Assembly: GCA_964499685.1 (NCBI GenBank)
Contig: CAZCLW010000003.1
Coordinates: 16,042-80,041, forward strand
Direction: 5' to 3'
From: an uncultured Planctomycetales bacterium
Lineage (GTDB): Bacteria; Omnitrophota; Gorgyraeia; Zapsychrales; GWA2-47-8
Length of the DNA: 64,000 nucleotides
Shown: positions 32,656 to 47,857 of the stretch, in pieces
Position numbering within the stretch: position 1 is the stretch's first letter
How the letters are laid out: each line of letters opens with the position of its first letter
Made by a program: the position numbers and the translations under genes
The notes under the pieces: generated by a model
What the model was told of the DNA's origin: nothing
Database searches by the model: none
What the model saw: the letters and a program-made list of their open reading frames with translations, nothing else

Positions 32656-33840
32656 ATGAAGTGGCTGGAAAATCTTCTGCATAAAGTAGGGACGAATTTC
32701 GAAAAGGGGAAGCCTTTGGCGAAATTCTATCCGCTTTTCGAGGCCATGGATACCTTCCTGCTCACGCCGGGCAAGATCACCCGTAAAGCGCCGTTCGTGC
32801 GCGATGCCGTTGATATCAAGCGGGTCATGGTCTTTGTCATCATTGCGTTGATCCCCGCGACAGTGATGGGCATTTACAATGCGGGGTATCAAATGTTGTT
32901 GGCCCAGAACCAGCCTTTGGATTTTTGGCAGGCCATGCTCCTCGGCGCGCAGAAAGTCCTGCCTATTATCTTCGTTTCTTATGCGGCCGGCGGCGTCTGG
33001 GAGGTCGTTTTCGCAGTCACGCGTAAACATGAGATCAACGAAGGATTTTTGGTCACCGGTCTTTTGTTTCCATTGACACTGCCGCCGGACATTCCTTTAT
33101 GGCAGGTGGCTGTCGGGATTTCCTTCGGGGTTGTGTTCGGAAAAGAAATTTTCGGCGGCACGGGGATGAACGTCTTTAATCCGGCGCTTGTGGCCCGGGC
33201 CTTTGTTTTCTTTGCCTATCCGGCACAGATGTCGGGCTCGACGGTATGGGTAGCGGTAGATGGTTACACAAAAGCCACACCGTTGGCCGTGGCGGCCGAA
33301 ACCGTGCGCGGTGGTTCCGCGGTCCAGGCCCTGACCAGCGCGGGGTTCACCTTTGAAAATCTTTTTTGGGGCTTTGTGCCCGGTTCTATCGGCGAAACAT
33401 CGGCCGCGGCTTGCTTGATCGGCTTAGCGTTTTTATTAATTACGCGGGTGGCGAGCTGGCGGACCGTGGCCGGATGCGTCCTGGGCCTTCTGGCGATAAG
33501 CGGTTTATTCTATATACTTCGCGGACCGGAGCGGTTAGGGTTTTTCAATCTGCCGCCTCATTGGCATCTGGTCCTGGGCGGTTTTGCCTTTGGCGCGGTA
33601 TTCATGGCGACGGATCCTGTTTCTTGCTGTGCGACCGATATCGGACGCTGGATCTACGGATTTTTGATCGGCGCTTTAACGGCGGTCATCCGGGTCCTGA
33701 ACCCGGCCTACCCGGAAGGCGTTATGCTGGCCATCCTGTTCATGAACATGTTTGCCCCGCTGATTGATCACTTCGTTGTTAATGTCCATATAAAGAAACG
33801 CAATGAACGGTTCCAAACAGCAACCGTAAAAACAAAATGA
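32656..33840 (+). CDS. nqrB: Na+-NQR subunit B
   Basis: Polytopic NqrB/RnfD family. FMN-attachment region GGTGMNVFNPAL and conserved TM pattern. Confidence 0.85.
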   Translation: MKWLENLLHKVGTNFEKGKPLAKFYPLFEAMDTFLLTPGKITRKAPFVRDAVDIKRVMVFVIIALIPATVMGIYNAGYQMLLAQNQPLDFWQAMLLGAQKVLPIIFVSYAAGGVWEVVFAVTRKHEINEGFLVTGLLFPLTLPPDIPLWQVAVGISFGVVFGKEIFGGTGMNVFNPALVARAFVFFAYPAQMSGSTVWVAVDGYTKATPLAVAAETVRGGSAVQALTSAGFTFENLFWGFVPGSIGETSAAACLIGLAFLLITRVASWRTVAGCVLGLLAISGLFYILRGPERLGFFNLPPHWHLVLGGFAFGAVFMATDPVSCCATDIGRWIYGFLIGALTAVIRVLNPAYPEGVMLAILFMNMFAPLIDHFVVNVHIKKRNERFQTATVKTK

Positions 33841-34571
33841 TTTTTAACATCAAAAAAGACAATCCCGCCTATCCCTTTATTTTCGCATTGATCGTGTGCG
33901 TTGTTTGCGGTGTCCTGCTTTCCTTCTTTTCGGAGGCTCTGCGGGAAAGGCAAGAGCTTAATGTCGAACTGGATATCAAAAAGAACATCCTCAAGGTCGT
34001 GGGGTTAAGAGAACCTATTCCCGCTGAAGCCGCTCCCCAAGAGGTCCTCAAGATCTACGAAGAAAAAATACATGGTCTGGTCATTGACGAGCAGGGCAAT
34101 GTGGTGGAAGGACGTAAGCCTGACGATATCAAAGAAGGCGAAAACAACCTTCACCCGCTCTATATTTATAAAGAGGGGGAAGAGGTCGTTGCTTACGCGT
34201 TTCCCATGGTAGGCCAGGGGTTGTGGTCGACCCTGTATGGATATTTTTCTTTGGAAAAGGATGCGATAACCGTACGCGGGATCACCTATTATAAACATGG
34301 GGAAACACCGGGCCTGGGCGGGGAGATCGAAAAGGACTGGTTCCAGAGCAATTTCAAAGGAAAGACCATCTATTCTCTCCAGGAAAATAAGCTGACTCCC
34401 ATCGTCGTGGCTAAGGGAAAGGCCGAAGGCCAGGTCTCGGAGGAGAAATTGAAACATTATGTCGACGGGATCACCGCCGCCACGATTACGGGCGCCGGTG
34501 TGACACAGATGATCGAAAGAACTTTGAAGATCTATGAGACTTATTTCAGCAAAGTCCGTCAGGGGGCGTAA
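33837..34571 (+). CDS. nqrC: Na+-NQR subunit C
   Basis: N-terminal TM plus C-terminal FMN-binding domain with DGITAATITGAG (flavinylation Thr motif). Confidence 0.85.
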   Translation: MIFNIKKDNPAYPFIFALIVCVVCGVLLSFFSEALRERQELNVELDIKKNILKVVGLREPIPAEAAPQEVLKIYEEKIHGLVIDEQGNVVEGRKPDDIKEGENNLHPLYIYKEGEEVVAYAFPMVGQGLWSTLYGYFSLEKDAITVRGITYYKHGETPGLGGEIEKDWFQSNFKGKTIYSLQENKLTPIVVAKGKAEGQVSEEKLKHYVDGITAATITGAGVTQMIERTLKIYETYFSKVRQGA

Positions 34572-34640
34572 GGGCACTCGCATCGCATTTTTATCGTGCT
34601 ATAATAGTTTTAGATTGAAATAAGATTTTAAGAAAGAGAG

Positions 34641-35282
34641 GTGGCTGATATGCCAAACACACTTTTATCGAAAACAGAGAAAAAGATCGTCCGTGACGGG
34701 CTATGGGACACCAATCCCATTACGTTCCAGATCCTCGGTATTTGTTCGGCCTTGGCCGTTACCACACAGTTAAAGACATCCCTGATCATGGCTTTGGGCT
34801 TGACGTTCGTGACCTCCATGTCCAACGTGGTCATTTCTCTCATCCGTAATTATATTCCGTCGCAAATCCGTATCATCGTGCAGCTGACCGTTGTCTCCAG
34901 CCTGGTCATCAGCATTGACCAGATCCTGAAGGCCTATTCGTATGAAGCCAGCAAACAGCTGAGCGTTTTTGTCGGATTGATCATTACCAATTGCATCGTT
35001 ATGGGGCGCCTGGAGGCTTTCGCCATGGGTAATCCACCGCGGAAAGCTTTTTTGGACGGCTTGGCCAACGGGCTGGGTTACAGCGCGGTCTTGATCAGCA
35101 TAGGCATCATCCGTGAGATCTTCGGTTCCGGGACTTTGCTGGGGTTTCGCGTGATCCCGGAAGCGGCCTACGCGAGCGGATATGTCAATAACGGCATGAT
35201 GGTTTTGGCGCCGGGGGCATTTTTCTTGCTGGGCATCGTTGTCTGGATCCAGCGTGCTGTTTCCGGATATTCGGAAACTTAA
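34641..35282 (+). CDS. nqrD: Na+-NQR subunit D
   Basis: NqrD/RnfE family: [18 protein letters not shown] and conserved Cys. Confidence 0.9.
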
Positions 35283-35297
35283 AAAAAGGAAAATACA

Positions 35298-35921
35298 ATG
35301 GATATCGTGCATTACGTGAATTTAGCGATCAAAGCTATATTTGTGGAGAATATCCTTTTGGCGTATTTTTTGGGGAACTGTTCTTATATCGCGTGTTCAA
35401 AGAAGATCGAGACCGCTCTGGGTTTAGGTATCGCCGTTATCTTTGTCATGGTCATCTGCACGCCGGCCTGCTGGGCTATAAAATACTTTCTTCTCCAAAA
35501 AGGCGCCCTGGCCTGGACCGGTATCCCGGCATTGGCTTCTTTGGATATGGCCTTCCTGGTCTTCATTAGTTTCATTGCGGTCATTGCCGCCATGACCCAG
35601 CTGGTCGAAATGCTCGTCGAAAAATTTTCTCCGGCGCTGTACAATTCCCTGGGTATCTTTTTGCCGCTCATCGCCGTCAACTGCGCCATTTTGGGCGCCG
35701 CGCTCTTTATGGACCAGCGCAATTATAATTTTATGGAATCGGTCATTTTCGGCCTTGGCGGCGGTATCGGCTGGGCCTTGGCCATCGTTTCCATGGCCGC
35801 GGTGCGCAAAAAATTGGCTTATTCGAACATCCCGGCCCCTCTGCGCGGGCTGGGGATCACGATGTTGATCAGCGGGCTGATGTCCCTCGGCTTTATGTGT
35901 TTTGCCGGAATACGGTTATAG
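35298..35921 (+). CDS. nqrE: Na+-NQR subunit E
   Basis: NqrE/RnfA family pattern. About 200 aa, 6 TM. Confidence 0.9.
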   Translation: MDIVHYVNLAIKAIFVENILLAYFLGNCSYIACSKKIETALGLGIAVIFVMVICTPACWAIKYFLLQKGALAWTGIPALASLDMAFLVFISFIAVIAAMTQLVEMLVEKFSPALYNSLGIFLPLIAVNCAILGAALFMDQRNYNFMESVIFGLGGGIGWALAIVSMAAVRKKLAYSNIPAPLRGLGITMLISGLMSLGFMCFAGIRL

Positions 35922-35933
35922 AAAAGGAATGTC

Positions 35934-37169
35934 ATGCACCTTTTATTTTATGTCCTGGTTAGCACGGTAGTTTTTACGCTCCTCATCATTCTGCTTGTGG
36001 CCATCCTGTCTTTCATCCGGGCCAAGGTCGTTTCCACCAAGGATTGCAAGATCATTATTAACGACGACCCGGAACCGCTCCATGTGAAGGCGGGCAGCAA
36101 TTTGCTGTTCAGTCTGGCCGACAGCAAGATATTCCTGCCCTCGGCGTGCGGCGGCGGCGGAAGCTGTGCCATGTGCAAATGCCAGGTCTTGGAGGGCGGC
36201 GGGAGTATTTTGCCGACGGAGACAGGTCAAATTAATCGTCGCATGCAAAAGGAACATTACCGCCTAGCCTGCCAGGTGAAGGTGCGTAACGACATGAAGA
36301 TCCGCATTCCCGACGAGGTCTTTCATATCAAGAAATTTGACTGCAAGGTGCGGTCCAACCGCAATGTGGCCACTTTCATCAAGGAGTTGATTCTCGAACT
36401 GCCTGCGAACGAACCCCTGGATTTCAAACCAGGCGGGTATATCCAGATCGACATTCCCGAATACAAAGACTTAAGTTTCAAAAATTTTAGCATCGAAAAG
36501 GAATATCACCCGGATTGGGACAAGTTCAAGTTGTGGGACCTTAAAGCAACCAACGAAGAGGAGATTTTCCGGGCCTATTCCATGGCCAATCATCCGGGCG
36601 AAAAAGGCGTTGTCATGCTCAATGTGCGTATTGCCACACCTCCGCCGAATGACATGTCGCTCCCTCCAGGCAAGGCCTCTTCCTATATTTTTAATCTAAA
36701 GCCGGGCGATAAAGTCACGATCAGCGGTCCATACGGCGAATTCTTTATCAAGGACACCAAGCGCGAGATGATCTATATCGGCGGCGGTGCCGGTATGGCG
36801 CCTTTACGCAGTCATTTGTTCCATTTGTTCCACACCCTTCAGAACCGAGACCGCAAGGTCAGTTATTGGTATGGGGCCCGTTCCAAACGGGAAATGTTTT
36901 ATACAGAAGATTTTGAGAATATCGAGAAGAACTTTTCCAATTTCAAATACAATGTGGCCCTTTCCGCGGCCCTTCCGGAAGATAATTGGAAAGGCATGAC
37001 CGGCTTCATCCACCAGGCCTTGTATGACAACTATCTGAAAAATCATCCCGAACCGGAAGAGATCGAATATTACCTGTGCGGCCCGCCCATGATGATCGCG
37101 GCCGTGCAGAAGATGCTCGATTCCCTGGGTGTGCCCAAGGAAATGATCGCCTTCGATTCATTCGGTTGA
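35934..37169 (+). CDS. nqrF: Na+-NQR subunit F (2Fe-2S ferredoxin + FAD/NADH reductase)
   Basis: N-terminal TM. Ferredoxin cysteines [22 protein letters not shown]-binding motif. [12 protein letters not shown]-binding motif. Confidence 0.9.
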
Positions 37170-37175
37170 TACAGA

Positions 37176-37213
37176 AGAAAACCCTGCACTTAAGGTGCGG
37201 GGTTTTCTTGTTT
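37176..37213. terminator. intrinsic terminator after nqrF (gaaaaCCCTGCAC-ttaag-GTGCGGGGttttc + T-rich), potentially bidirectional
   Basis: 8-bp GC stem with one G·U, extended by A:U pairs, U-tract on both strands. Begins 7 nt after the nqrF stop. Confidence 0.65.
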
Positions 37214-37378
37214 AGGAGAGTTGGCGTCGCATTCCGCGGCCTTTTGAGGGTCGTTCTTGCACAGGCACTCCGGGCCCAAGGAACATCCGCGCTTGAGGAC
37301 TTTTTTGGTGAGGACAAAGCCGATGCCCATCAAGAGAAAGCATCCGGCCAAAATAAGAATGGCGAAGAGTGTATTCAT
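37190..37378 (-). CDS. candidate small Cys-rich membrane protein, NqrM/FeoB-associated-like (unannotated micro-ORF; uncertain)
   Basis: 62-aa ORF from the ATG at 37378. TM helix NTLFAILILAGCFLLMGIGFVL followed by KRGCSLGPECLCKNDPQKAAEC (4 Cys). No obvious SD. Convergent with nqrF. Confidence 0.3.
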   Translation of the reverse strand: MNTLFAILILAGCFLLMGIGFVLTKKVLKRGCSLGPECLCKNDPQKAAECDANSPKQENPAP

Positions 37379-37407
37379 AATTTTAGTATAGGCCAATTTA
37401 AATCAAA

Positions 37408-38673
37408 ATGCAACAGAGCACAAAGTCCACTACATCCTCCCGCCTTTCGAACAATAAGAAACTGCAGATCAGCCAGTCGGAAGAGCTCAAGATCCTGCGC
37501 AAGGTCGTGGATATCACAAGCTCCGCCCTGGAATTGAGCCTTGTCCTGAAGGAAGTGGTCAAGATCGTGACCGAAATGACCTCGGCCGACTCCGTCTTTA
37601 TCTATCTTTTCGACGAGAACCGCGAGCATCTGGTCCTGATGGCCTCCAAAACCCCGCATAAAGAACAGTTGGGGAAAGTGCATTTGAACGTCGGGGAAGG
37701 TATCACGGGATGGGTCGCCAAGGAAAGTAAACCCGTTGCCATCGCGCAGAACGCGTACAGGGACTCGCGCTTTAAGAATTTTGATGTCCTGCCCGAAGAT
37801 AAATACGAAGCGTTTTTGTCGGTTCCCATTATCTACCAGAACCGTGCCATCGGTGTCATCAACGTCCAGCACCGCCGGCCGCATGCCTATGCGGCGAACA
37901 CCGTCAGCCTGATCGTGACGATCGCCAAACAGGTCGGCGGCGTCATCGAACACGCCCAGCTCTTCGAACAGATGAAGAAAAAGGCGACCCAGTTCGACAG
38001 TCTGGTCAAGGTCAGCCAGTCCATCACCTCCGAAGATTATTTGGACGAGATCTTGAGTCTCATCGTCGTGGTCACAGCTGAGATGCTCAATTCCAAGATA
38101 TGCTCCATCATGCTTTTGGACGAAAAAGGCGAAGAACTGGCCATCAAGGCGACCCAAAGCCTGAGCGTGGATTACCGTAAGAAGCCAAATGTCAAAGTGG
38201 ATGCGAGCTTAAGCGGAGAGGTCGTCAAAACCAAGAAGCCCATGGCGGTCTATGATGTCCGGGAGGAGAAGCGCTATTTTTACCGGGATTTGGCCATCAA
38301 GGAGGGATTGACCTCCATGCTGGCCGTTCCCATGATTGTGAAAGAAAAGGCCGTGGGCATCATCAATGTGTACACGCAAAAACCGCACCGCTTTGCGGAA
38401 GATGAGATCAATGTCCTGCAAATGGTAGCCAACCAGGCGGCGGTCGCGGTCCAGAACACGAAATTGATGGAAGAGGCCCTGAAGGCCAAAGAATCTCTGG
38501 AGACACGCAAGGTGGTCGAGCGGGCCAAAGGGATCCTGATGCGGATGAATAATCTGAGCGAAGAAGCGGCCTACAAGGTCATCCACCGAAAAAGCATGGA
38601 TTCCTCCCGTTCCATGAAAGAAATTGCTGAATCCATCATTCTTTTGGATGAACTGCAGAAGGACAAGAAATAA
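37408..38673 (+). CDS. GAF-GAF-ANTAR RNA-binding antitermination regulator
   Basis: Two GAF-like modules (…VFIYLFDE…LVLMASK…GEGITGWVAKESKPVAI… and …ICSIMLLDEKGEELAIKA…GEVVKTKKPMAVYDV…). C-terminal ANTAR-like helix bundle LETRKVVERAKGILMRMNNLSEEAAYKVIHRKSMDSSRSMKEIAESII. Confidence 0.7.
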   Translation: MQQSTKSTTSSRLSNNKKLQISQSEELKILRKVVDITSSALELSLVLKEVVKIVTEMTSADSVFIYLFDENREHLVLMASKTPHKEQLGKVHLNVGEGITGWVAKESKPVAIAQNAYRDSRFKNFDVLPEDKYEAFLSVPIIYQNRAIGVINVQHRRPHAYAANTVSLIVTIAKQVGGVIEHAQLFEQMKKKATQFDSLVKVSQSITSEDYLDEILSLIVVVTAEMLNSKICSIMLLDEKGEELAIKATQSLSVDYRKKPNVKVDASLSGEVVKTKKPMAVYDVREEKRYFYRDLAIKEGLTSMLAVPMIVKEKAVGIINVYTQKPHRFAEDEINVLQMVANQAAVAVQNTKLMEEALKAKESLETRKVVERAKGILMRMNNLSEEAAYKVIHRKSMDSSRSMKEIAESIILLDELQKDKK

Positions 38674-38719
38674 TTTCTCGACGGGAAAAAGTCTTCCGCT
38701 GTTTCGTTAAATTTTTTTC

Positions 38720-38748
38720 TTGACAAAAAACGCGGTGTGGCGTATATT
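38720..38748 (+). promoter_or_regulatory. sigma70-like promoter TTGACA-N17-TATATT upstream of the amt1 leader
   Basis: Consensus -35 and near-consensus -10 with 17-nt spacer read directly. Confidence 0.5.
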
Positions 38749-38786
38749 TTGGTTGCTTAAGTCAATGAAGATTTAAGGCCTTATCC

Positions 38787-38800
38787 GGACAGAGAAGTCC
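38787..38800 (+). promoter_or_regulatory. hexaloop hairpin GGAC-AGAGAA-GTCC (A1/G4 loop; candidate ANTAR recognition element) overlapping the 5' arm of terminator 1
   Basis: Seen directly. The 3' arm GTCC shares nucleotides with the CCCGC arm of the downstream terminator. Confidence 0.35.
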
Positions 38801-38830
38801 CGCCGTCAACGACGCGGGATTTTTTATTTT
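38799..38830 (+). terminator. leader terminator 1 (CCCGCcGTC-aac-GACGCGGG + ATTTTTTATTTT)
   Basis: 8-bp GC-rich stem with 1-nt bulge followed by a U-tract. Confidence 0.55.
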
Positions 38831-38857
38831 GTACGGAAATATTTTTGGGCAAAGACG

Positions 38858-38907
38858 TCCGATGATTTTCTGAAAAGGCAGTCAGAAAGGTCATCGGATT
38901 TTTTTAT
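38858..38907 (+). terminator. leader terminator 2 (TCCGATGATTTTCTGA-aaaggcag-TCAGAAAGGTCATCGGA + TTTTTTTAT)
   Basis: About 15-bp stem (one bulge/G·U) followed by 7 U. Confidence 0.65.
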
Positions 38908-38923
38908 GGGATTCGGGCGCTGA

Positions 38924-38970
38924 GGCCCTCTTGAACAGAGCAAGGACGTTCAAGGGGGCCTTTTGTGTTT
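38924..38970 (+). terminator. leader terminator 3 (GGCCCTCTTGAAC-agagcaaggac-GTTCAAGGGGGCC + TTTTGTGTTT)
   Basis: 13-bp stem with a single G·U followed by a U-rich tract. About 110 nt upstream of amt1. Confidence 0.55.
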
Positions 38971-39082
38971 AAGTTTGCCTGAGGGAGACAGGGGAGGTGA
39001 ATATGAACTGACAACACATCTAGCGATTAACCACGAAGTGGAAGTGGTCTTACTTATATCAAAAAATGGAGGATACAAAACA

Positions 39083-40423
39083 ATGTTTAAACAATTTGGC
39101 AAAAAATTCTTAAGTATATTCATGGGCGTGTTGTTCGCGACCCTGGCGTTCAGCCTGCCGGCCATGGCGGCCGATGTTACGGCGGCCGATGCCATGTTCA
39201 CGGTGAACAATACGTGGATGATGGTTTCAACGTTCCTGGTCTTTATCATGCATTTGGGTTTCGCGACCCTGGAATCGGGGCTGACCCGGGCCAAAAACAC
39301 CACGAACATTCTTTTTAAGAATGTCTCGATCGTGGCGATCGGCCTTTTGACCTATGCGGTCTTGGGCTTCAACCTCATGTATCCGGGTGATTCCTGGATC
39401 TTCGGTAAATGGTTTGGGTTCGGCGGCTTCGGAGTTTCTTCACCGGAAGGTGCCGCAGGGCTCATTGAATATGCCGACGGCAAATACACCTACTGGACGG
39501 ATTTTCTTTTCCAGGCGATGTTCGCGGCCACCGCGGCCACGATCGTCTCAGGGGCCGTTGCCGAAAGGATCAAGTTACACAGCTTTTTATTTTTCTCCAT
39601 TTTCTTTGTCGGGCTGGTCTATCCCTTTATCGGAAGCTGGAAATGGGGTGCCGGTTGGCTCAATGACAAAGGGTTCTATGATTTCGCCGGTTCGACCCTC
39701 GTCCACTCTGTGGGCGGTTGGGGCGCCTTGGCCGGAGCGCTTATCCTGGGCCCGCGTCTGGGCAAATACAATAAAGGCAGTGTCAAAGCCATTCCCGGGC
39801 ACAATATGCCTTTGGCAACCATCGGTGTTTTTCTCCTATGGTTGGGATGGTTTGGTTTCAACGGCGGGTCGGTGCTTTCAGCTGATCCCGGCGCTGTTTC
39901 CTACGTTTTGGTGACCACCTCTCTGGCAGCGGCCGCCGGTATCGTCGGCGCCATGCTGGCCTCGGAGCTTTATTTAAAGAAACCGGACCTATCTATGGTC
40001 TTAAACGGTTCTCTGGCCGGTTTGGTAGGCATCACGGCCGGAGCTGACACTGTTTCGGTCCTTTCCGCGATTATCATAGGCCTGATCGCCGGTATTTTGG
40101 TCGTTTTGGCGGTCGTTTTCATTGATTCTAAACTGAAGATCGACGATCCCGTGGGGGCCATCTCGGTCCACTTGGTCTGCGGCATCTGGGGCACATTGGC
40201 CGTCGGGATCTTCAGCACCAAGCCAGAGCACACGTTCTGGATCCAGTTGTTGGGCGTCATTGCGTGCGGACTTATGGCGTTTCTTTCGGCTTTTCTCATC
40301 TTCAGCGTGGTCAAGGCCCTGATGGGCATGCGCGTTCCGGAAGAAGAAGAGCTGAAGGGACTGGATATTGGGGAACACGGTATGGAGGCATACGAAGGTT
40401 TCCAGATCTTTACGACCCAATAA
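39083..40423 (+). CDS. amt: ammonium transporter (Amt/MEP/Rh family) with cleavable signal peptide
   Basis: RBS GGAGGA. Signal peptide …SLPAMAADV. Conserved Amt motifs (…D.AGG.VVH..GG..AL.GA…; FGFNGGS). Confidence 0.9.
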   Translation: MFKQFGKKFLSIFMGVLFATLAFSLPAMAADVTAADAMFTVNNTWMMVSTFLVFIMHLGFATLESGLTRAKNTTNILFKNVSIVAIGLLTYAVLGFNLMYPGDSWIFGKWFGFGGFGVSSPEGAAGLIEYADGKYTYWTDFLFQAMFAATAATIVSGAVAERIKLHSFLFFSIFFVGLVYPFIGSWKWGAGWLNDKGFYDFAGSTLVHSVGGWGALAGALILGPRLGKYNKGSVKAIPGHNMPLATIGVFLLWLGWFGFNGGSVLSADPGAVSYVLVTTSLAAAAGIVGAMLASELYLKKPDLSMVLNGSLAGLVGITAGADTVSVLSAIIIGLIAGILVVLAVVFIDSKLKIDDPVGAISVHLVCGIWGTLAVGIFSTKPEHTFWIQLLGVIACGLMAFLSAFLIFSVVKALMGMRVPEEEELKGLDIGEHGMEAYEGFQIFTTQ

Positions 40424-40453
40424 TCCTTATCAATCAAAAGGGAGGTTATAAAA

Positions 40454-40795
40454 ATGAAATATATTGTTGCCATGATCCAGCCTCACAAGCTGCCTGATGT
40501 CAAAAAGGCTTTGTTCGAGGCCGATGTCCATAAGATGACCGTGACCAACGTCGTGGGTTGCGGGCAACAGCGCGGTTTTAGTGAGACCTACCGCGGTGTT
40601 GTACATGAAGTGAACCTGTTAAAGAAGGTCCGTATTGAAATTGGCGTCAATGACGAGTTCGTGAAGCCGACCATCCGTGCCATTATCAAAGGTGCCAAAA
40701 CGGGAAATATCGGCGATGGCAAGATCTTTGTTTTTGATCTTCCCCAATGTATCCGTATCCGCACCGAAGAAGAGGGCGGCAAGGCCATTGGTTAA
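40454..40795 (+). CDS. glnK: PII nitrogen regulatory protein, divergent T-loop
   Basis: 112-aa PII fold ([13 protein letters not shown]…DGKIFVFDL…IRIRT). T-loop reads [14 protein letters not shown] instead of the canonical G(R/H)GRQKG…YRG. Confidence 0.85.
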
Positions 40796-40814
40796 GTAAG
40801 CTGTGGTTGTCCAC

Positions 40815-40901
40815 GAGGGAGAAGGTGGTTAAGGCTAAAAGCAGCCTCTCTTCTCCCTCCTTAAAATATCAGCGCGATGATTTTTAAGGAAAGAGGCTGC
40901 T
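40815..40901 (+). promoter_or_regulatory. two mutually exclusive 10-bp helices (GAGGGAGAAG/CTTCTCCCTC and AGCAGCCTCT/AGAGGCTGCT) in the glnK1-amt2 spacer
   Basis: Perfect complementarities read directly. Each helix sequesters one arm of the other, like an attenuator switch. Confidence 0.4.
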
Positions 40902-41060
40902 CAATTTATAAGAAAGGCAGCGCTTACTATGCACTCCCTCTGGGGGCTGTATGATTCTTTGGGAAAAGCTACATGGGTGTTCATCATCTCGATGTTCGTC
41001 TTCGAGGTTTGCCTGAGCATTTATGGGCTGATGTCCTTTTAGTCGTCGCTTTAAAAAACC

Positions 41061-41089
41061 TTGACATCAAAATGGGATGATTGTATACT
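41061..41089 (+). promoter_or_regulatory. sigma70-like promoter TTGACA-N17-TATACT upstream of amt2
   Basis: Read directly. Lies 84 nt upstream of a strong leader terminator. Confidence 0.5.
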
Positions 41090-41172
41090 CACCTCAATTC
41101 TAAAGGCACTGGCGTCTTTAGAAAAAAATCGGTCGCACGCATGCATAGCCGGCCGATCAAGGGCATGGAAGT

Positions 41173-41222
41173 CCTCAAGAGACCAAAACAAGAGAAGGTC
41201 TCGTTTGAGGGCTTTTTTTTTG
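41173..41222 (+). terminator. leader terminator before amt2 (CCTCAAGAGACC-aaaacaagagaa-GGTCTCgtTTGAGG + GC + T9)
   Basis: 12-bp stem with 2-nt bulge followed by nine consecutive T. Located 80 nt upstream of the amt2 start. Confidence 0.65.
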
Positions 41223-41302
41223 GACAACGGCGTCCGTAACATGCACAGGTAAAGATCTCGTTGCAGAAGCAGTAATAACACAATGTGAAGGGAGAACACA
41301 TT

Positions 41303-42538
41303 ATGGACATGATCAATGCAGGTGACACAGCGTGGGTTTTGATTTCCTCAGCCCTTGTCATGCTTATGACGCCGGGCCTGGCCTTCTTTTACGGAGGCAT
41401 GGTAAGACGTAAAAATATTTTAGGCGTTTTAATGCAATGTTTTATCGTTCTTTGTGCGTTAAGTCTTCATTGGGTCTTGATCGGCTATAGCCTTTCCTTC
41501 AGCTCAGGGAATCCTTTTATCGGCGGATTGCAATGGGCCGGCCTCAACGGTGTCGGTCAAGAGCCTAATCCCGATTATGCCGCGACGATCCCGCATCAGG
41601 CCTTTATGATCTTTCAGGCTATGTTTGCCGTCATTACCCCGGCTTTGATCATCGGCGCCTTTGCCGAGCGCATGAAATTTTCAGCTTTTCTGTTATTCAC
41701 CCTTTTATGGGCCACATTCGTGTACGCGCCCGTGTGCCACATGGTCTGGGGTCTCGGCGGATTTATCCGCAGCATGGGAGCCTTGGATTTTGCCGGAGGC
41801 ACGGTCGTTCATATCAATGCCGGTATCGCGGCTTTGCTGACCGCTATGATGATCGGCAAAAGGACCGGCTATGCGAATAAACCGACGCCTTTGCATAATA
41901 TCCCGTTCACGGTATTGGGTGCGGCGCTGCTCTGGTTCGGCTGGTTTGGTTTCAATGCCGGAAGCGCTTTGGGTGCCGGCGGTCTGGCCGCCGCGGCTTT
42001 TGTCACGACCAACACGGCCGCCGCCGCTGCAGGTCTTACATGGGCGATTTTAGAATGGAAAATGACCGGTAAACCGACGATGTTCGGAGCGGTGACCGGC
42101 GCTGTTGCGGGTCTGGTTGCCATCACACCGGCAGCCGGTTTTGTTACGCCCGTATCGGCCATTATCATCGGTGTTGTCGTCAGCCTGCTATGTTTCTTTA
42201 TGGTCGGTATTGTCAAACCGAAGTTGGGCTACGATGATTCTTTGGATGCCTTCGGCGTCCATGGTATCGGCGGGATCTGGGGGGCTCTGGCCACGGGGTT
42301 GTTCGCGACGACCTCGGTCAATTCGGCCGGTGCCGACGGGCTTTTCTATGGGAATCCCGGATTATTGTTTATTCAGTTGAAAGCCGTTCTGGTGACCATT
42401 ATTTACTGCCTTATTGTGACAGCCGTCATTTACAAAATTGTCGATATGATCATCGGCATGAGGGTCTCACAAGAAGATGAGGCGATCGGTCTGGATTTGA
42501 CCCAGCACCATGAACGCGCCTACACCATGCTGGAATAA
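41303..42538 (+). CDS. amt: ammonium transporter (Amt family), no signal peptide
   Basis: RBS AAGGGAGAA 7 nt upstream of the ATG at 41303 (the ATG at 41285 lies in the RBS). Conserved Amt motifs (FGFNAGSAL, VVHINAGIAAL). Confidence 0.9.
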   Translation: MDMINAGDTAWVLISSALVMLMTPGLAFFYGGMVRRKNILGVLMQCFIVLCALSLHWVLIGYSLSFSSGNPFIGGLQWAGLNGVGQEPNPDYAATIPHQAFMIFQAMFAVITPALIIGAFAERMKFSAFLLFTLLWATFVYAPVCHMVWGLGGFIRSMGALDFAGGTVVHINAGIAALLTAMMIGKRTGYANKPTPLHNIPFTVLGAALLWFGWFGFNAGSALGAGGLAAAAFVTTNTAAAAAGLTWAILEWKMTGKPTMFGAVTGAVAGLVAITPAAGFVTPVSAIIIGVVVSLLCFFMVGIVKPKLGYDDSLDAFGVHGIGGIWGALATGLFATTSVNSAGADGLFYGNPGLLFIQLKAVLVTIIYCLIVTAVIYKIVDMIIGMRVSQEDEAIGLDLTQHHERAYTMLE

Positions 42539-42575
42539 CCTAACGAGAAAACAATAATTCAAGGGAGAAGAAGAT

Positions 42576-42917
42576 ATGAAATTAATCATTGCGATCATTC
42601 AGCCTCATAGATTAGAGGAAGTAAAAAAGGCCTTGTATGAGGCCGACATTAATTTGATCACGGTCAGCGAGGTCTTGGGCCACGGCCGTCAAAAAGGCAT
42701 CGATGAGTTCTACCGCGGTTCCAAGGAAACCGGCAATCTCCTGCGCAAGATAAGGCTGGAGATCGCCGTTAACGAGAACTTCGTGGACCCCACGATCAAG
42801 GCCATCATCAAGGGCGCCCGTACTGGAAAGATCGGTGATGGGAAGATCTTTGTCGTTGATCTGCCGCGATGCATCCGCATTCGTACAGGAGACGAGGGCT
42901 CACAGGCCATCGGTTAA
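42576..42917 (+). CDS. glnK: PII nitrogen regulatory protein (canonical T-loop)
   Basis: [16 protein letters not shown]-loop with Tyr. [16 protein letters not shown]. Confidence 0.9.
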
Positions 42918-42952
42918 AAGCGTTCGGAAATGGGGGTTTTCCGGATAAATTT

Positions 42953-42990
42953 CCTTCCCCGGGCGTGCCCGGGGAAGGGGATTTATTTGG
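42953..42990 (+). terminator. intrinsic terminator after amt2-glnK2 (CCTTCCCCGGG-cgtg-CCCGGGGAAGG + T-rich)
   Basis: Perfect 11-bp GC stem, tetraloop, followed by GATTTATTTGG. Confidence 0.65.
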
Positions 42991-42991
42991 G

Positions 42992-43020
42992 TTGACGCTT
43001 AGAGGAAAGATTGCTAGAAT
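42992..43020 (+). promoter_or_regulatory. sigma70-like promoter TTGACG-N17-TAGAAT for glnN, embedded in the inverted repeat TTAGAGG…CCTCTAA
   Basis: Hexamers read directly. 7-bp IR arms at 42999-43005 and 43023-43029 bracket the spacer and -10. Confidence 0.45.
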
Positions 43021-43090
43021 TGCCTCTAAATCTAACCCGCTGAAAATAAATTAGTTTAAACCCTAATAAATAATTGAGGAGAGAAGGAAT

Positions 43091-45265
43091 ATGCGACGAT
43101 TATCAGAAGTAAACGCAGCAGCTAATTCTGTCTCAGATGCACAAAAAACTGCCGCAGAAGGTGGAAATGGAGGGCTTGCAAACGTGAAAGGTGCTCAATC
43201 GATCATCGATCTTTACGGTCAAAATGTGTTCAGTCTCAAAGTCATGCGCAATTATCTTTCGGAAAAGGCCTATAAATCCATCAGCACGACGATAAAAGAA
43301 GGCGGCCGGCTCGATCCGGAGATCGCCGACGAAGTCGCCGATGCGATGAAGAACTGGGCTGTTTCCAAAGGCGCCACGCACTTTACTCATTGGTTCCAGC
43401 CGTTGACCGGCACCACGGCCGAAAAACATGATTCTTTTTTGTCTCCCGATGGTGAAGGCGGGGCCATTCTGCATTTTTCCGGAAAAGAATTGATCCAGGG
43501 TGAGCCGGATGCTTCCAGCTTCCCCTCAGGCGGCTTGCGTGCGACTTTTGAAGCCCGCGGTTATACAGCCTGGGACCCGACCAGCCCGGCTTTCATCAAG
43601 GAAGGGCCGGAAGGGGCAACGCTGTGTATCCCGACGGTTTTCTGCGGTTATCACGGTGAAGCGTTGGACAAAAAGACCCCGCTTTTGCGTTCCATGGCGG
43701 CCTTGTCCAAGCAGGTTTGCCGTTTGGGAAGACTCTTCGGCATCGACACCAAAGGGAAAAGGGCCTACGCCACCTTAGGCGGCGAGCAGGAATATTTCCT
43801 GATCGACAAGAATTACTATCTGCAGAGAATGGACCTTATTCAGACCGGACGCACTTTGTTCGGCCGTAAACCCGCCAAACATCAGCAGATGGAAGACCAT
43901 TATTTCGGCGCTATCAAGAGCCGTATCATTGCTTACATGGAAGACCTGGACCGCGAACTCTGGAAACTGGGCGTTCCGGACAAGACCCGTCATAACGAGG
44001 TCAGCCCGGCTCAATATGAGGTCGCTCCGGTCTTCGAAGAGCTGAATATCGCCGTTGACCACAACCAGATCACCATGGAGCGCATGCGCGCTGTGGCTGA
44101 GAAGCACGGTTTGGTCTGCTTATTGCACGAAAAACCGTTCGCCGGCGTCAATGGTTCGGGTAAGCATAACAACTGGGCCATCGTCGGACCCGATGGAAAG
44201 AACTGGTTCTCGCCGGGCAAGAACCCGCATGAAAATGCGAAATTTTTGACCATGCTTTGCGCGACCATTCAGGCCGTGGATGAGTATGCCGCTATCCTGC
44301 GCGCGTCCGTTGCCTCGGCCGGTAATGATCACCGTCTGGGCGCCAACGAAGCTCCGCCCGCCATCATCTCCATCTTCCTGGGTGAGCAGTTGAGCAATAT
44401 CATCGAGCAGATCGAAAAAGGCGGCGCCAAGAGCTCGACCTCCGGTGGTACGATCGAGATTGGGGTCGATTCTCTGCCTAAACTGCCGCGCGATGCCACC
44501 GACCGTAACAGAACTTCGCCGTTTGCTTTCACCGGGGCCAAGTTCGAATTCCGCGCCGTGGGTTCCAACATGAGCCTGGCCGGTCCGAACGTTGTCCTGA
44601 ACACGATCATGGCCGATGCCCTGGATGATATCTGCGCCAAGTTGGAAGAGGCCCAAAAATCCAAGAAGGATTTCAACGCCTCCTTGCAGAAGATCCTTCA
44701 GGAAGTCATTAAAAAGCATAAGCGCGTTCTCTATAACGGAGACAACTATACTCCGGAATGGCATGCCGAAGCCAAAAAGCGCGGCCTGCCCAATCTTAAG
44801 ACCACACCGGAAGCGCTTGCTGTGCTCAAAGAAGAAAAGACCATCAAGCTCTTTGAAAAGCACGGTGTTTTGACCAAAAAAGAGCTGCTTTCCCGTTATA
44901 ACATCTACATGCATACCTACGACACCATCGTTCAGCTGGAAGGCAATTGCGCTCTGCAGATCGCCAGAACGCAGGTTATCCCGGCTGCTTTGGCGTATCA
45001 GCAGGAACTGGCCGAGACGATCAAGATCGTCGGTACAGCCGGTAAAACGGTCCAGGCTAAGAAACTGCTTAAAAGAGTTTCGGGCTACACCGAAGATGGC
45101 CTGGCCGCAAGCGATCAGCTAGAAACAGCGGTAGACAAGCATGATTCCGCCAAGACTTTGGCGGCCATGGTCAAGCTCCGCGAAGCTGTCGACGAGCTTG
45201 AGGCTATTGTTCCCGAACAAAAGTGGCCGTTGGCCTCTTATGCTGAAATGTTATCTGTTTTTTAA
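43091..45265 (+). CDS. glnN: glutamine synthetase type III
   Basis: 724 aa. N-terminal GSIII-specific domain (…[20 protein letters not shown]…) and catalytic domain. Collinear with Bacteroides-type GlnN. Confidence 0.9.
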
Positions 45266-45293
45266 TTAACATAGAACATAAGAACGAACCATT

Positions 45294-45335
45294 AAAGCGG
45301 TTAGGGGCAAAAGCCCCTAACCGCTTTGCTCTATC
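45294..45335 (+). terminator. intrinsic terminator after glnN (AAAGCGGTTAGGGGC-aaaa-GCCCCTAACCGCTTT)
   Basis: Perfect 15-bp stem, tetraloop, then GCTCTATCTT. Confidence 0.65.
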
Positions 45336-45350
45336 TTAAGAAAAGGAAAG

Positions 45351-46070
45351 ATGATCCTCTTTATCAAGCACATCGACATCGAAGGTCCCGGGACGATCGA
45401 GACCTATTTCCGCGGCAAAGAGTTCGCCTTAAAGACTGTCGACCTCGGCCGGGGAGAAAAATTGCCGGAAAATTTTTCGGACATCGAGGCGATTGTCTGC
45501 CTCGGCGGGCCCATGAACGTTTATGAAGAAGATAAATACCCTTTTTTAAAAGAAGAGGATAAATTCATCAAGGACGCACTCAAAGAAGAGGTTCCTTTCC
45601 TGGGTATTTGTCTGGGATCGCAGCTCTTGGCCAAGGCCTGCGGCGCCAAGGTCGGAAAATCGCCGGTCAAAGAAGTAGGGTGGTTCAAGGTCAATTTGAA
45701 AGATGAAGGCCAAAAGGACCCGCTGTTCAAAGGGATCGATCCCAGCTTTGATGTTTTCCACTGGCATGAAGATATGTTCGAGATCCCGCAAGGGGCGAGG
45801 TTTTTAGCTACCGGTACGGGATGTCCTCATCAGGCGTTTAAGGTGGGAAAAAATGCTTACGGTATCCAATTCCATGTGGAAGTAACTAAGCCTATCATTG
45901 CGAATTGGTGTAAGGCTTATTTGGCCAGCGACGATCTGCAAAAGCAGAGTCAGGCCAAGGACATGCTGGCCGTCTATCACAATAAGGAAGAAAGTTTTAA
46001 CCGGCAATCAGATGTCATCTATAAGAATTTTAACGATCTGATCGCCCAAAGAAAGCTGGTCAACCCATAA
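45351..46070 (+). CDS. class I glutamine amidotransferase-like protein (GATase1)
   Basis: Nucleophile elbow FLGICLGSQLL (Cys) and HVE catalytic pair (QFHVEV). Confidence 0.7.
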   Translation: MILFIKHIDIEGPGTIETYFRGKEFALKTVDLGRGEKLPENFSDIEAIVCLGGPMNVYEEDKYPFLKEEDKFIKDALKEEVPFLGICLGSQLLAKACGAKVGKSPVKEVGWFKVNLKDEGQKDPLFKGIDPSFDVFHWHEDMFEIPQGARFLATGTGCPHQAFKVGKNAYGIQFHVEVTKPIIANWCKAYLASDDLQKQSQAKDMLAVYHNKEESFNRQSDVIYKNFNDLIAQRKLVNP

Positions 46071-47749
46071 TGCTGCGCATCGCTTTAGCCCAGATCAACA
46101 CGACCGTCGGCGACCTGGAAGGGAACCGTCAGAAGATCACGGATTACCTTGTCCGTGGCCGGGAAATGAACGCGGATGTGGTCGCTTTTCCCGAACTGGC
46201 TGTCACCGGTTATCCCCCCGAAGACCTTTTGTTTAAAAAGCATTTTGTCGACGATAATATCAAGGCCTTGAAAAAGATCATCCCGCAGACGGCCAATATC
46301 ACGGCCATTGTCGGCTTTGCGGATCTTAAGAACGGAGAGTTGTTCAACGCGGCGGCGATCATCCATGATAAAAAGCTGGTGGGGGTTTACCATAAAGCGG
46401 CCCTGCCCAATTACGGGGTTTTCGATGAGAAGCGTTATTTTGTTCCGGGAGATTCCAACCCTATCTTTTCGCTCAACGGTATCAAAGTCGGTGTGAACGT
46501 CTGCGAGGACATTTGGTTGCCGCATGGGCCCTGCGAGGCCCAGCTCAAGGCCGGGGCACAAGTGCTCATCAATATTTCTTCATCGCCGTACCATTTTGCG
46601 AAATGGAAGCAGCGCGAGAAAGTCCTGAAACAATGGATCAAGAACAATAATATCTTTGTCGGCTATGTCAACCTGGTGGGCGGCCAGGATGAGCTGGTTT
46701 TCGATGGAGGAAGCGTTATCCTCGACCCTAAAGGCCGCCGCGTTGCCGTCGGGAAACAGTTTGAAGAAGATTTTGTCGTAGCCGATATCCAGCCCGGCAA
46801 AACAAAGAAAACGGCGCGGAAGGTGAAGGTCGTGCTGGTCAAAGATCTCCCCGGCCATGACAGCCGCCTTCCCATCAAAGGGAAAGTTGAACCATACCTC
46901 GAGCCGAATGAGGAGATATTCAAAGCATTGGTCGTAGGAACAAGGGATTATATCGTTAAGAATGGATTCAAAAAGGTTGTCATAGGCCTAAGCGGCGGCA
47001 TCGACTCTTCGCTGGTCGCGGTTATCGCCAAAGAAGCGATCGGAAAGGAAAACGTGATCGGCATCACCATGCCGTCGCGTTTTTCTTCGGCCGGGACCCT
47101 GAGCGATGCTAAACAGCTCGCCCAGAATTTGGGCATCCGCTGTCTCGAGGCCCCTATCGAAAATATTTTTAAAAGTTATCTCGAGAGTTTAGAGAAGGAT
47201 TTTGCCGGACAGCCGCCTAATATTGCCGAGGAGAACCTGCAGGCACGCATCCGGGGGACCATCCTGATGGCCTTTTCGAACAAATTCGGGTGGTTGGTCC
47301 TGACGACCGGGAATAAGAGCGAATTTGCGGTCGGTTATTGCACCCTTTACGGGGACATGTCCGGCGGCTTTGCGGTCATCAAGGATGTTCCCAAAACACG
47401 CATCTACGCCCTGGCGGCGCTGGTAAATAAAAAATGGCCCGGCACCATTCCCGAAAGCGTCATTCAAAGAGCCCCTTCGGCTGAATTGAGGGAAAACCAG
47501 AAAGACCAAGACAGCCTGCCGCCCTATGAGGTTTTGGACCCGATCCTGCAGTCCTATGTGGAAGAGCATAAAGGCTGGGCTGACCTAATGAAGCATTATC
47601 ATGATAAAAAGACCGTGGAAGACGTGATGCGGATGGTGGATTATAGTGAGTATAAACGCCGGCAAGCGCCCCCGGGTGTTAAGATCACGGCCAGGGCTTT
47701 TGGGAAGGACTGGCGCTTACCTATCACTAACAAATACAAGGGGTTTTAA
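46070..47749 (+). CDS. nadE: glutamine-dependent NAD+ synthetase (CN-hydrolase + NAD synthase domains)
   Basis: N-terminal nitrilase-like domain (LRIALAQIN…FPELAVTGY…CED). C-terminal SGGIDSS PP-loop. 559 aa. TAATG overlap with the upstream GATase. Confidence 0.9.
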   Translation: MLRIALAQINTTVGDLEGNRQKITDYLVRGREMNADVVAFPELAVTGYPPEDLLFKKHFVDDNIKALKKIIPQTANITAIVGFADLKNGELFNAAAIIHDKKLVGVYHKAALPNYGVFDEKRYFVPGDSNPIFSLNGIKVGVNVCEDIWLPHGPCEAQLKAGAQVLINISSSPYHFAKWKQREKVLKQWIKNNNIFVGYVNLVGGQDELVFDGGSVILDPKGRRVAVGKQFEEDFVVADIQPGKTKKTARKVKVVLVKDLPGHDSRLPIKGKVEPYLEPNEEIFKALVVGTRDYIVKNGFKKVVIGLSGGIDSSLVAVIAKEAIGKENVIGITMPSRFSSAGTLSDAKQLAQNLGIRCLEAPIENIFKSYLESLEKDFAGQPPNIAEENLQARIRGTILMAFSNKFGWLVLTTGNKSEFAVGYCTLYGDMSGGFAVIKDVPKTRIYALAALVNKKWPGTIPESVIQRAPSAELRENQKDQDSLPPYEVLDPILQSYVEEHKGWADLMKHYHDKKTVEDVMRMVDYSEYKRRQAPPGVKITARAFGKDWRLPITNKYKGF

Positions 47750-47857
47750 CTCTAAAGAAAGGCTACTTTAAGAAAAATAGGATTGCATAATTCACAAAAA
47801 TGGATAAAATGATAATTCGACCCACCAACAAAATAATGTAGTTTTTGGAGTGTATTA

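Follow-up and report, generated by a model that had tools for sequence, protein, structure and literature searches.

A GAF-GAF-ANTAR protein and hexaloop hairpins over the leader terminators of two amt-glnK operons in an uncultured member of the Omnitrophota

The DNA analyzed here (the window) is a 64,000-nucleotide (nt) stretch from an uncultured bacterium of the Omnitrophota, a candidate phylum without an isolate (PMC10066038); it is deposited under the name of an uncultured Planctomycetales bacterium (assembly GCA_964499685.1, contig CAZCLW010000003.1, positions 16,042 to 80,041 of the forward strand). Between window positions 37408 and 42917, a gene for a protein with two GAF domains and a C-terminal ANTAR domain is followed by two gene pairs, amt1-glnK1 and amt2-glnK2, each encoding an ammonium transporter and a PII protein and each preceded by a promoter and a leader with intrinsic terminators. 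A preliminary description of the same DNA, made without database searches, had proposed that the protein is a ligand-gated antiterminator acting on these leaders. The elements that bear on this proposal are small hairpins with a six-nucleotide loop (hexaloop) that overlap the leader terminators, in the window and in related genomes.

The regulator and its operons

The genes and protein domains at the center of the locus are:

37408-38673, + strand, regulator gene encoding a 421-amino-acid (aa) GAF-GAF-ANTAR protein (Pfam, NCBIfam, PDB sequence matches, AlphaFold2 [AF2] model, and Foldseek)
37480-37962, + strand, GAF1 of the regulator, residues ~25-185 (domain search and AF2 model)
37990-38457, + strand, GAF2 of the regulator, residues ~195-350 (domain search and AF2 model)
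38485-38640, + strand, ANTAR domain of the regulator, residues 360-411 (Pfam PF03861)
Regulator residues 163-204, connecting helix, and 331-381, coiled-coil helix (AF2 model)
39083-40423, + strand, amt1, ammonium transporter of the ‘marine subtype’ (TIGR03644, 1.2e-138; TIGR00836 above cut-off)
40454-40795, + strand, glnK1, PII protein (Pfam, NCBIfam)
41303-42538, + strand, amt2, AmtB-type ammonium transporter (Pfam, NCBIfam)
42576-42917, + strand, glnK2, PII protein (Pfam, NCBIfam)

Two GAF modules and an ANTAR module had been read by eye from the open reading frame (ORF) at 37408-38673, and Pfam confirms them: the GAF domains score 6.7e-41 (PF13185) and 1.1e-37 (PF01590), and the ANTAR domain matches PF03861 at 1.9e-19 (69.6 bits vs. 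a cut-off of 27.3), covering profile positions 3-54 of 54. In a PDB sequence search, the regulator ANTAR is alignable to those of EutV (6wsh), Rv1626 (1s8n), and NasR (4akk); of NasR, only the ANTAR part can be aligned, to regulator residues 354-414. The crystal structure of EutV with RNA identifies the residues that touch the hexaloop as R142, K143, K147, K149, E160, Y164, and M172 (PMC8934654). These correspond to R367, K368, R372, K374, E385, Y389, and M397 of the regulator, with a single change (K to R at R372), and they are invariant across 20 homologues save Y389 (Y in 14, H in 6). The nearest homologues are 70-86% identical to the regulator, and those that carry a name come from metagenome-assembled genomes (MAGs) of Candidatus Omnitrophota.

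The AF2 monomer model (predicted local distance difference test, pLDDT, 78.6) arranges the chain as GAF1, a long helix, GAF2, helix 331-381, and two further helices, 385-399 and 403-420. Pfam and NCBIfam find no Response_reg match, and the N-terminal 350 residues are the two GAF domains, which sets the protein apart from REC-ANTAR response regulators; Pfam finds no NIT domain either, which separates it from the NasR type. No second ANTAR-like sequence is present in the 64-kb window.

What might the tandem GAF module sense? GAF1 resembles the GAF domain of PtsP (PDB 3ci6, 2.5e-23; NCBIfam PRK11061, positions 2-166 of 748, 5.7e-44): its sequence identity to the PtsP GAF structures 3ci6 and 3trc is 31-32%, and Foldseek gives template modeling (TM) scores of 0.88-0.91. 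GAF2 resembles the N-terminus of NifA (NCBIfam, 4.6e-27). As a whole, the regulator scores below the cut-offs of both families, at 150.5 vs. 583 bits for PRK11061 (PtsP) and 95 vs. 528.85 for NifA, and in Foldseek it is similar to the tandem-GAF modules of PDE5, PDE2, and CyaB2. Ligands of the PtsP GAF domain are glutamine, with an inhibitory effect, and alpha-ketoglutarate, with a stimulatory one (PMC13104625, PMC4848567); by analogy, it is plausible that the regulator reports nitrogen status via a small-ligand GAF input.

The two amt-glnK pairs follow the regulator gene as the preliminary description had them. The start of amt1 is corrected to the ATG at 39083, which has GGAGG ahead of it, and the start of amt2 is likely the ATG at 41303, after GAAGGGAG. 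The two transporters are of different types: Amt1 has an N-terminal extension and Amt2 is AmtB-like; relatives carry one, the other, or both.

Terminators and hexaloop hairpins in the leaders

The leader of amt1-glnK1 (leader 1) and that of amt2-glnK2 (leader 2) contain the following elements, in which A1 and G4 denote A and G at loop positions 1 and 4:

38720-38748, + strand, sigma70-type promoter of leader 1, TTGACA-17-TATATT, 11/12 consensus positions
38756-38777, + strand, leader 1 P1 hairpin, 8-bp stem, hexaloop AAUGAA (A1, G4), -5.7 kcal/mol, starting at about +1
38787-38800, + strand, leader 1 core hairpin 1 (P2), GGAC-AGAGAA-GUCC, -4.0 kcal/mol, an exact motif match
38797-38826, + strand, terminator T1 of leader 1, hairpin 38797-38820, -12.1 kcal/mol, U6
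38845-38862, + strand, leader 1 core hairpin 2, UUGGGC-AAAGAC-GUCCGA, covariance model 16.6 bits, sharing bases with the 5′ arm of T2
38857-38906, + strand, terminator T2 of leader 1, hairpin 38857-38899, -20.8 kcal/mol, U7
38915-38928, + strand, leader 1 core-like hairpin 3, GGGC-GCUGAG-GCCC, its loop starting with G in place of A, sharing bases with the 5′ arm of T3
38922-38970, + strand, terminator T3 of leader 1, hairpin ~38923-38961, -24.4 kcal/mol, UUUUGUGUUU
41061-41089, + strand, sigma70-type promoter of leader 2, TTGACA-17-TATACT, 11/12 consensus positions
41098-41123, + strand, leader 2 P1 hairpin, 9-10-bp stem, hexaloop ACUGGC, -10.3 kcal/mol, covariance model 17.0 bits
41128-41157, + strand, leader 2 linker hairpin, filling the long P1-to-core linker, -10.8 kcal/mol
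41161-41174, + strand, leader 2 core hairpin, GGGC-AUGGAA-GUCC, sharing bases with the terminator 5′ arm
41169-41221, + strand, leader 2 terminator, hairpin 41169-41214, -21.2 kcal/mol, U9
41222-41235, + strand, extra leader 2 core hairpin, GGAC-AACGGC-GUCC, exact motif, covariance model 18.2 bits

The layout that had been described for amt1, a sigma70-like promoter and then three terminators, holds, as does that for amt2, a promoter and then one strong terminator. The two promoters are the two best matches in the 9.3-kb region scanned, and transcription of amt1-glnK1 is predicted to start near 38755. All four leader terminators were identified by folding; a simple terminator scanner missed them because their loops and bulges are above its limits. 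Both leaders are more stable than shuffled sequence (leader 1, z = -4.7, 0/100 shuffles as stable; leader 2, z = -3.5, 0/200). Rfam yields no family for either leader, at the gathering threshold or at a permissive one, only chance-level miRNA-like matches; it seems that Rfam holds no ANTAR-target model.

In the ANTAR recognition element, the hexaloops carry A1 and G4, and the 3′ hairpin competes with a terminator (Ramesh et al., 2012, PMC3369931). A search for this dual-hexaloop element, which the preliminary description had suggested along with the folding, finds P1 and a second hairpin in both leaders, with the 3′ hairpin overlapping the terminator. The overlapping element is a small hexaloop hairpin, GGRC-AnnGnn-GUCC (a GnnGnn/GCCC variant at T3), placed over the 5′ arm of the leader terminators. 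In core hairpin 1, which is separated from P1 by a 9-nt linker, the 3′ arm GUCC is the first 4 nt of T1; for core hairpin 2 (38845-38862), no convincing partner hexaloop is found in leader 1. The GUCC or GCCC of each core hairpin begins the 5′ arm of its terminator, and hairpin and terminator are thus mutually exclusive. The energies of the two folds differ widely: the core hairpins have -4 to -7 kcal/mol, the terminators -12 to -24, and forcing a core hairpin costs 6-8 kcal/mol. The default state of the leaders is therefore off, with termination unless a factor stabilizes the core hairpin; the earlier expectation that little transcription would reach the amt genes unless termination is suppressed is in line with these energies.

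How specific is this motif to the leaders? In the 64 kb, the exact motif, GGRCANNGNNGTCC, occurs four times, always on the + strand and always in the two amt leaders; when one mismatch is allowed, the window has 21 matches vs. 7.3 expected. A covariance model (R1), built from 14 elements of other species only, has its best window match at 38757-38800 (39.4 bits, E 2.9e-8); matches two to four likewise fall in the two leaders.

The same arrangement recurs in relatives. A scan of one genome per species gave 80 loci that encode a 68-81% identical protein (cited below by L numbers), nearly all of them in Omnitrophota MAGs, some deposited under other labels. The gene order is well kept: in 53 of the 63 loci with at least 2.5 kb of downstream sequence, amt, glnK, or glnA of the type III glutamine synthetase (GSIII) lies downstream on the same strand, and in most of the 80 species the regulator gene is directly upstream of a motif-bearing leader. 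The exact core motif is present 107 times in the 80 loci, every time on the strand of the regulator and 0 times on the opposite one; 104 copies lie in leaders of amt, a second amt, or GSIII glnA, and three elsewhere. A terminator-anchored test, in which pairing is not a selection criterion, finds a 4-bp A..G.. hexaloop hairpin over the 5′ arm of 68 of 163 leader terminators, as opposed to 1.6-2.4 in controls. With the stems fixed, G occupies loop position 4 in 123 cases (vs. A 4, C 3, T 0); loop position 1 is A in 123 cases on the + strand and 0 on the - strand, and G in 32 and 6, respectively.

The hairpins also keep their place relative to promoters and to one another. Within 110 nt upstream of 71 of the 107 motif arrays lies a TTGAC[AT]-N16-18-TAnnnT promoter (background, 0.017 per 110 nt), and the promoter-to-core spacing is bimodal: either 12-17 nt, so that the transcript opens with the core, or 25-80 nt, enough to accommodate P1. 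An upstream P1 accompanies 24 of the 107 cores (3.0 expected), most commonly at gaps of 8-13 nt. Over all sources, R1 gives 39 matches at E <=0.001, every one on the + strand. P1 has compensatory changes at all 7 pairs and 98% of its cells paired, a value that 0/500 shuffles reach, in an alignment whose fitting to the model biases the counts in favor of structure.

Some cores depart from this pattern. The extra core of leader 2 (41222-41235) sits immediately 3′ of the U9 tract, without a terminator behind it and 68 nt before the amt2 start; L016:9936 is arranged in the same way, and terminator-less cores are also present at L037:8492, L043:8517, L056:14924, and L079:2287. The terminator apex was considered as a partner hexaloop; it qualifies in 11 of 68 terminators with a core vs. 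6 of 95 without, and this weak enrichment is not relied on. At the protein level, L024, L026, L032, and L051 have a second, shorter GAF-like ORF directly after the regulator, 30-35% identical to its residues ~34-192, and L080 is a 1956-bp contig binned as ‘Nanoarchaeota archaeon’ with a 69%-identical copy of the regulator, probably a binning error.

Which other genes carry the element? In many relatives, a core hairpin and terminator lie 120-260 nt upstream of GSIII glnA. Unlike these, the glnA leader in the window (42918-43090) has no hexaloop or terminator unit; the gene is served by a promoter of its own (42992-43020), TTGACG-17-TAGAAT with TG upstream. No convincing further member of the regulon was found in the 64-kb window: a covariance-model match at 20517 falls inside a coding sequence and another at 47828, before gltB, has 12 bits, is AT-rich, and lacks the core motif, and both were rejected. 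Elsewhere, nirB, for assimilatory nitrite reductase, replaces amt: in L014, it comes directly after the regulator and is followed by a major facilitator superfamily (MFS) transporter gene, with no amt, and in L023, it lies ~2.9 kb downstream of the regulator with two ORFs between. The nirB leaders (L014 8236-8710, L023 10742-11135) contain P1-like and core-like hexaloop hairpins that overlap terminators, the motifs having been read by eye. A variant with an A-C mismatch, GGAC...GCCC, recurs among the hairpins of the nirB leaders.

More distant GAF-GAF-ANTAR homologues, 42-53% identical, come from sources named Nitrospirota and Acidobacteriota. In one of them (L086, a Nitrospirota MAG), the gene for a 48%-related homologue is followed by a leader (7240-7425) and then by nadE-amt-glnK-glnD. 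This leader has P1 (GGGAGAC-AACGAC-GUUUCCC), a linker hairpin analogous to hairpin 41128-41157 of leader 2, a core (GGAC-GACGAC-GUCC), and a terminator with U9. R1 gave it no score; its linker is long and structured and its core loop has G1, and the element is identified by sequence reading and folding. Its leader and gene order show that the module crosses phyla.

A candidate antitermination mechanism and its alternatives

The 421-aa protein is probably a one-component RNA-binding antiterminator that gates the amt-glnK leaders and takes nitrogen status as its input. Two strong, apparently constitutive sigma70-type promoters would fire into leaders that fold as terminators by default and, with three terminators before amt1-glnK1 and one before amt2-glnK2, both operons would be off by default. 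The GUCC of the terminator 5′ arm (GCCC in T3) could alternatively pair with the upstream GGRC to form a hexaloop hairpin of 4-6 bp. When active, the regulator would bind through its ANTAR domain to these weak core hairpins on the nascent RNA and stabilize them, along with P1 in the first unit of each leader; with the GUCC locked away, the base of the terminator could not form, and polymerase would read through into amt-glnK. Ahead of amt1, the off state would be tight, the effects of its three guarded terminators multiplying one another. The tandem GAF module would set the activity: low glutamine and/or high 2-oxoglutarate would most likely switch the regulator on, and the signal would probably travel along the long helices that connect the domains in a GAF-mediated dimer. 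We infer that this protein is the binder of these leader RNAs, in which synteny supports us; regulation would be in the on direction when nitrogen is limiting, and glutamine/2-oxoglutarate, taken over from PtsP by analogy, would be the ligand.

A number of observations weigh against this picture. The linker of leader 2 is 37 nt long and has a hairpin of its own, outside the 5-12-nt range of eut leaders. Units 2 and 3 of leader 1 consist of one hairpin each, without a recognizable second hexaloop, and the same is true of 38 of the 68 core-plus-terminator units in relatives, while EutV requires both hairpins in vivo (PMC3369931). In the 4-bp core helix, which is conserved, the changes are one-sided only (G-U, A-U, G-C alternation at one position), none being a compensatory double change; the case for its pairing is thus made by analogy and by a few variant stems (AGAC/GUCU, GAGC/GCUC). 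Similarity of the GAF domains does not by itself establish the ligand. The distant-homologue loci L082-L085, which include Nitrospiraceae and an Acidobacteriota MAG, and L087 are not beside nitrogen genes; no motif was found near L082/L083 (a Nitrospiraceae contig) or L085 (the Acidobacteriota MAG), and none near L087 by R1, the sole search made there. Finally, the evidence is computational, and, with 64 kb of this genome in view, other ANTAR genes may lie elsewhere in it.

If the leaders are opened by the ANTAR domain, does the GAF module have to sense glutamine or 2-oxoglutarate? The same mechanism could run on another input: contact with PII (GlnK1/GlnK2), a cyclic nucleotide, or cyclic di-GMP (c-di-GMP), an option that we think unlikely and still take seriously. 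GAF2 is NifA-like, and in several alpha- and beta-proteobacteria PII acts on the GAF domain of NifA; the glnK genes, two of which lie within the regulated operons, would then close a feedback loop with a PII-controlled GAF domain. The fold of the tandem GAF module is closest to the cyclic-nucleotide-binding GAF-A/GAF-B of PDE5, PDE2, and CyaB2, and an ANTAR protein, NasT, binds c-di-GMP (PMC10783516). In its sequence, however, GAF1 is specifically closest to the GAF domain of PtsP (32% identity, E 1e-23 to 1e-44), a documented glutamine/2-oxoglutarate sensor.

The remaining alternatives detach the regulator from the leaders or the leaders from any protein. It is improbable that the leader elements are served by another ANTAR protein encoded elsewhere, such as a GnfR-like REC-ANTAR, while the adjacent regulator has other targets. 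ANTAR domains recognize a generic hexaloop, which makes cross-talk possible, the view is limited to 64 kb of the genome, and among the Nitrospirota and Acidobacteriota homologues are some that lie apart from nitrogen genes; against this, a motif leader comes directly after the regulator gene in one Nitrospirota locus and most of the 80 species, and the regulator has the only ANTAR-like sequence in the window. Still less credible, and in our view highly improbable, is that the hairpins are ordinary terminators or insulators, a lineage repeat with coincidental hexaloops, or a protein-independent riboswitch. The terminators sit 3′ of promoters and 5′ of genes rather than at gene ends; in 80 species, the motif keeps to the leaders of nitrogen genes and to one strand, with loop constraints of exactly A1 and G4 and an ~30-fold enrichment at terminator 5′ arms over controls, and the hairpins are too small for the ligand pocket of a riboswitch. 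What speaks for such an origin is that the core helix has no compensatory double changes and that no Rfam family is matched.

The one-component antiterminator gating the amt-glnK leaders, as proposed above, joins a known class: ANTAR antitermination of nitrogen genes is established for GnfR, NasR, NasT, and AmiR. The comparison with GnfR of Geobacter sulfurreducens, drawn in the preliminary description, proves apt. GnfR is an ANTAR antiterminator that acts on leader terminators of nitrogen genes, including glnK and amtB, and its conserved RNA, CAGGCAANGGCGCC, is a GGC-AANGGC-GCC hexaloop hairpin that overlaps terminators (PMC2995071), comparable to the GGRC-AnnGnn-GUCC hairpin here. Unlike GnfR, in which a REC input is phosphorylated by a histidine kinase (GnfK/GnfR), the protein described here has two GAF domains and belongs to another phylum. 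NasR of Klebsiella oxytoca is likewise a one-component ANTAR protein that acts on the leader terminator of a nitrogen-assimilation operon through A1/G4 hexaloops (PMC3369931, PMC7496416), but it uses a NIT sensor for nitrate/nitrite and targets nasF; here, a tandem GAF module stands before amt-glnK (glnA and nirB in relatives) and terminators come in arrays. Unit 1 of leader 1 fits the canonical design known from EutV of Enterococcus faecalis: P1, a 9-nt linker, and P2 over the terminator, with A1 and G4 in both loops. EutV itself is a REC-ANTAR protein for ethanolamine utilization, and its RNAs differ from those here, in which many hexaloops are solo and leader 2 has a structured linker of 37 nt. 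On the sensor side, PtsP (EI-Ntr) and NifA, closest in sequence to GAF1 and GAF2, respectively, both have nitrogen-status sensor domains, but their outputs are a phosphoenolpyruvate (PEP)-dependent phosphotransferase and a sigma54 AAA+ activator rather than an RNA-binding ANTAR domain.

How much of this is new? ANTAR attenuators before amt-PII operons were predicted in 2012, e.g., in Desulfotomaculum acetoxidans and Clostridium thermocellum (Ramesh 2012 Table S2). They share with the leaders here the target genes, an ammonium transporter and PII, and the kind of RNA motif; they differ in being bioinformatic matches in Firmicutes and other groups, not Omnitrophota or Nitrospirota, for which no regulator architecture is given and GAF is unmentioned in the supplement. 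As of 2020, the characterized one-component ANTAR proteins had NIT and LOV inputs only, the known examples being NasR and PAL. GAF-ANTAR is among the most abundant ANTAR architectures and, within mycobacteria, the commonest of them (2025 review); no characterized GAF-ANTAR protein was found in the searchable literature, which excludes subscription journals. The claim of the preliminary description that the architecture had not been characterized agrees with that literature, and its novelty is narrower than it had seemed, given the 2012 predictions for amt-PII leaders and the one-component proteins NasR and PAL. What is new here is the sensor module, the phyla, and leaders built mostly from solo hexaloops in terminator arrays.

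A bolder reading can be entertained, tentatively and with more doubt than belief: this protein might be the first member of a one-component family that crosses phyla (Omnitrophota, Nitrospirota, and possibly Acidobacteriota), senses glutamine/2-oxoglutarate directly, and serves as the main nitrogen regulator, with amt, glnK, GSIII glnA, nirB, and nadE as targets. Control would then be wholly post-initiation, constitutive promoters feeding terminator arrays in which each terminator is guarded by a single sufficient hexaloop, unlike in EutV. The solo-hexaloop arrays make it testable whether one hexaloop suffices for co-transcriptional antitermination, a question that stems from the EutV-RNA structure (PMC8934654). 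The locus is a clean, highly conserved test case, with a defined regulator, 14-nt core sites with strict A1/G4, defined targets, and a specific ligand hypothesis; it also offers a concrete view of how nitrogen genes may be controlled in Omnitrophota, and at least one Nitrospirota genome has the module too.

Neighboring genes and smaller elements

The regulator and its operons are flanked by the following features:

33837-37169, + strand, nqrC-F
37190-37396, - strand, small conserved ORF, 68 aa, with one predicted membrane helix and a cysteine-rich tail
42953-42978, + strand, hairpin after glnK2, CCUUCCCCGGG-CGUG-CCCGGGGAAGG then GGAUUUAUUU, without the hexaloop motif
43091-45265, + strand, GSIII glnA
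45351-46070, + strand, class I glutamine amidotransferase gene
46070-47749, + strand, nadE, glutamine-dependent NAD synthetase
47858-52396, + strand, gltB, glutamate synthase large subunit

The nitrogen-assimilation cluster extends past glnK2, over 43091-52396, with glnA, the amidotransferase gene, nadE, and gltB. The hairpin at 42953-42978 is the probable end of the amt2-glnK2 transcript; ahead of this glnK2 terminator, at 42922-42946, lies a hairpin with a UGGGGG hexaloop.

On the other side, the 68-aa ORF sits between nqrF and the regulator gene, and tblastn finds it in the same place in ~20 related loci. It has no Pfam or NCBIfam match, and the idea that it might be NqrM-like could not be supported. 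The start of this minus-strand ORF is 11 nt from the ATG of the regulator gene; therefore, the promoter of the regulator must lie inside the ORF. Between the convergent nqrF and minus-strand ORF, in window 37170-37210, there is a GC-rich hairpin (AAAACCCUGCAC-UUAA-GGUGCGGGGUUUUC) with runs of A and U at its flanks, which resembles a bidirectional terminator.

An ORF for a hydrophobic peptide of 37 aa (MHSLWGLYDSLGKATWVFIISMFVFEVCLSIYGLMSF) occupies 40929-41042 on the + strand, within the 265 nt that separate glnK1 from the amt2 promoter; it has one 43%-identical match, in the equivalent place in L016.

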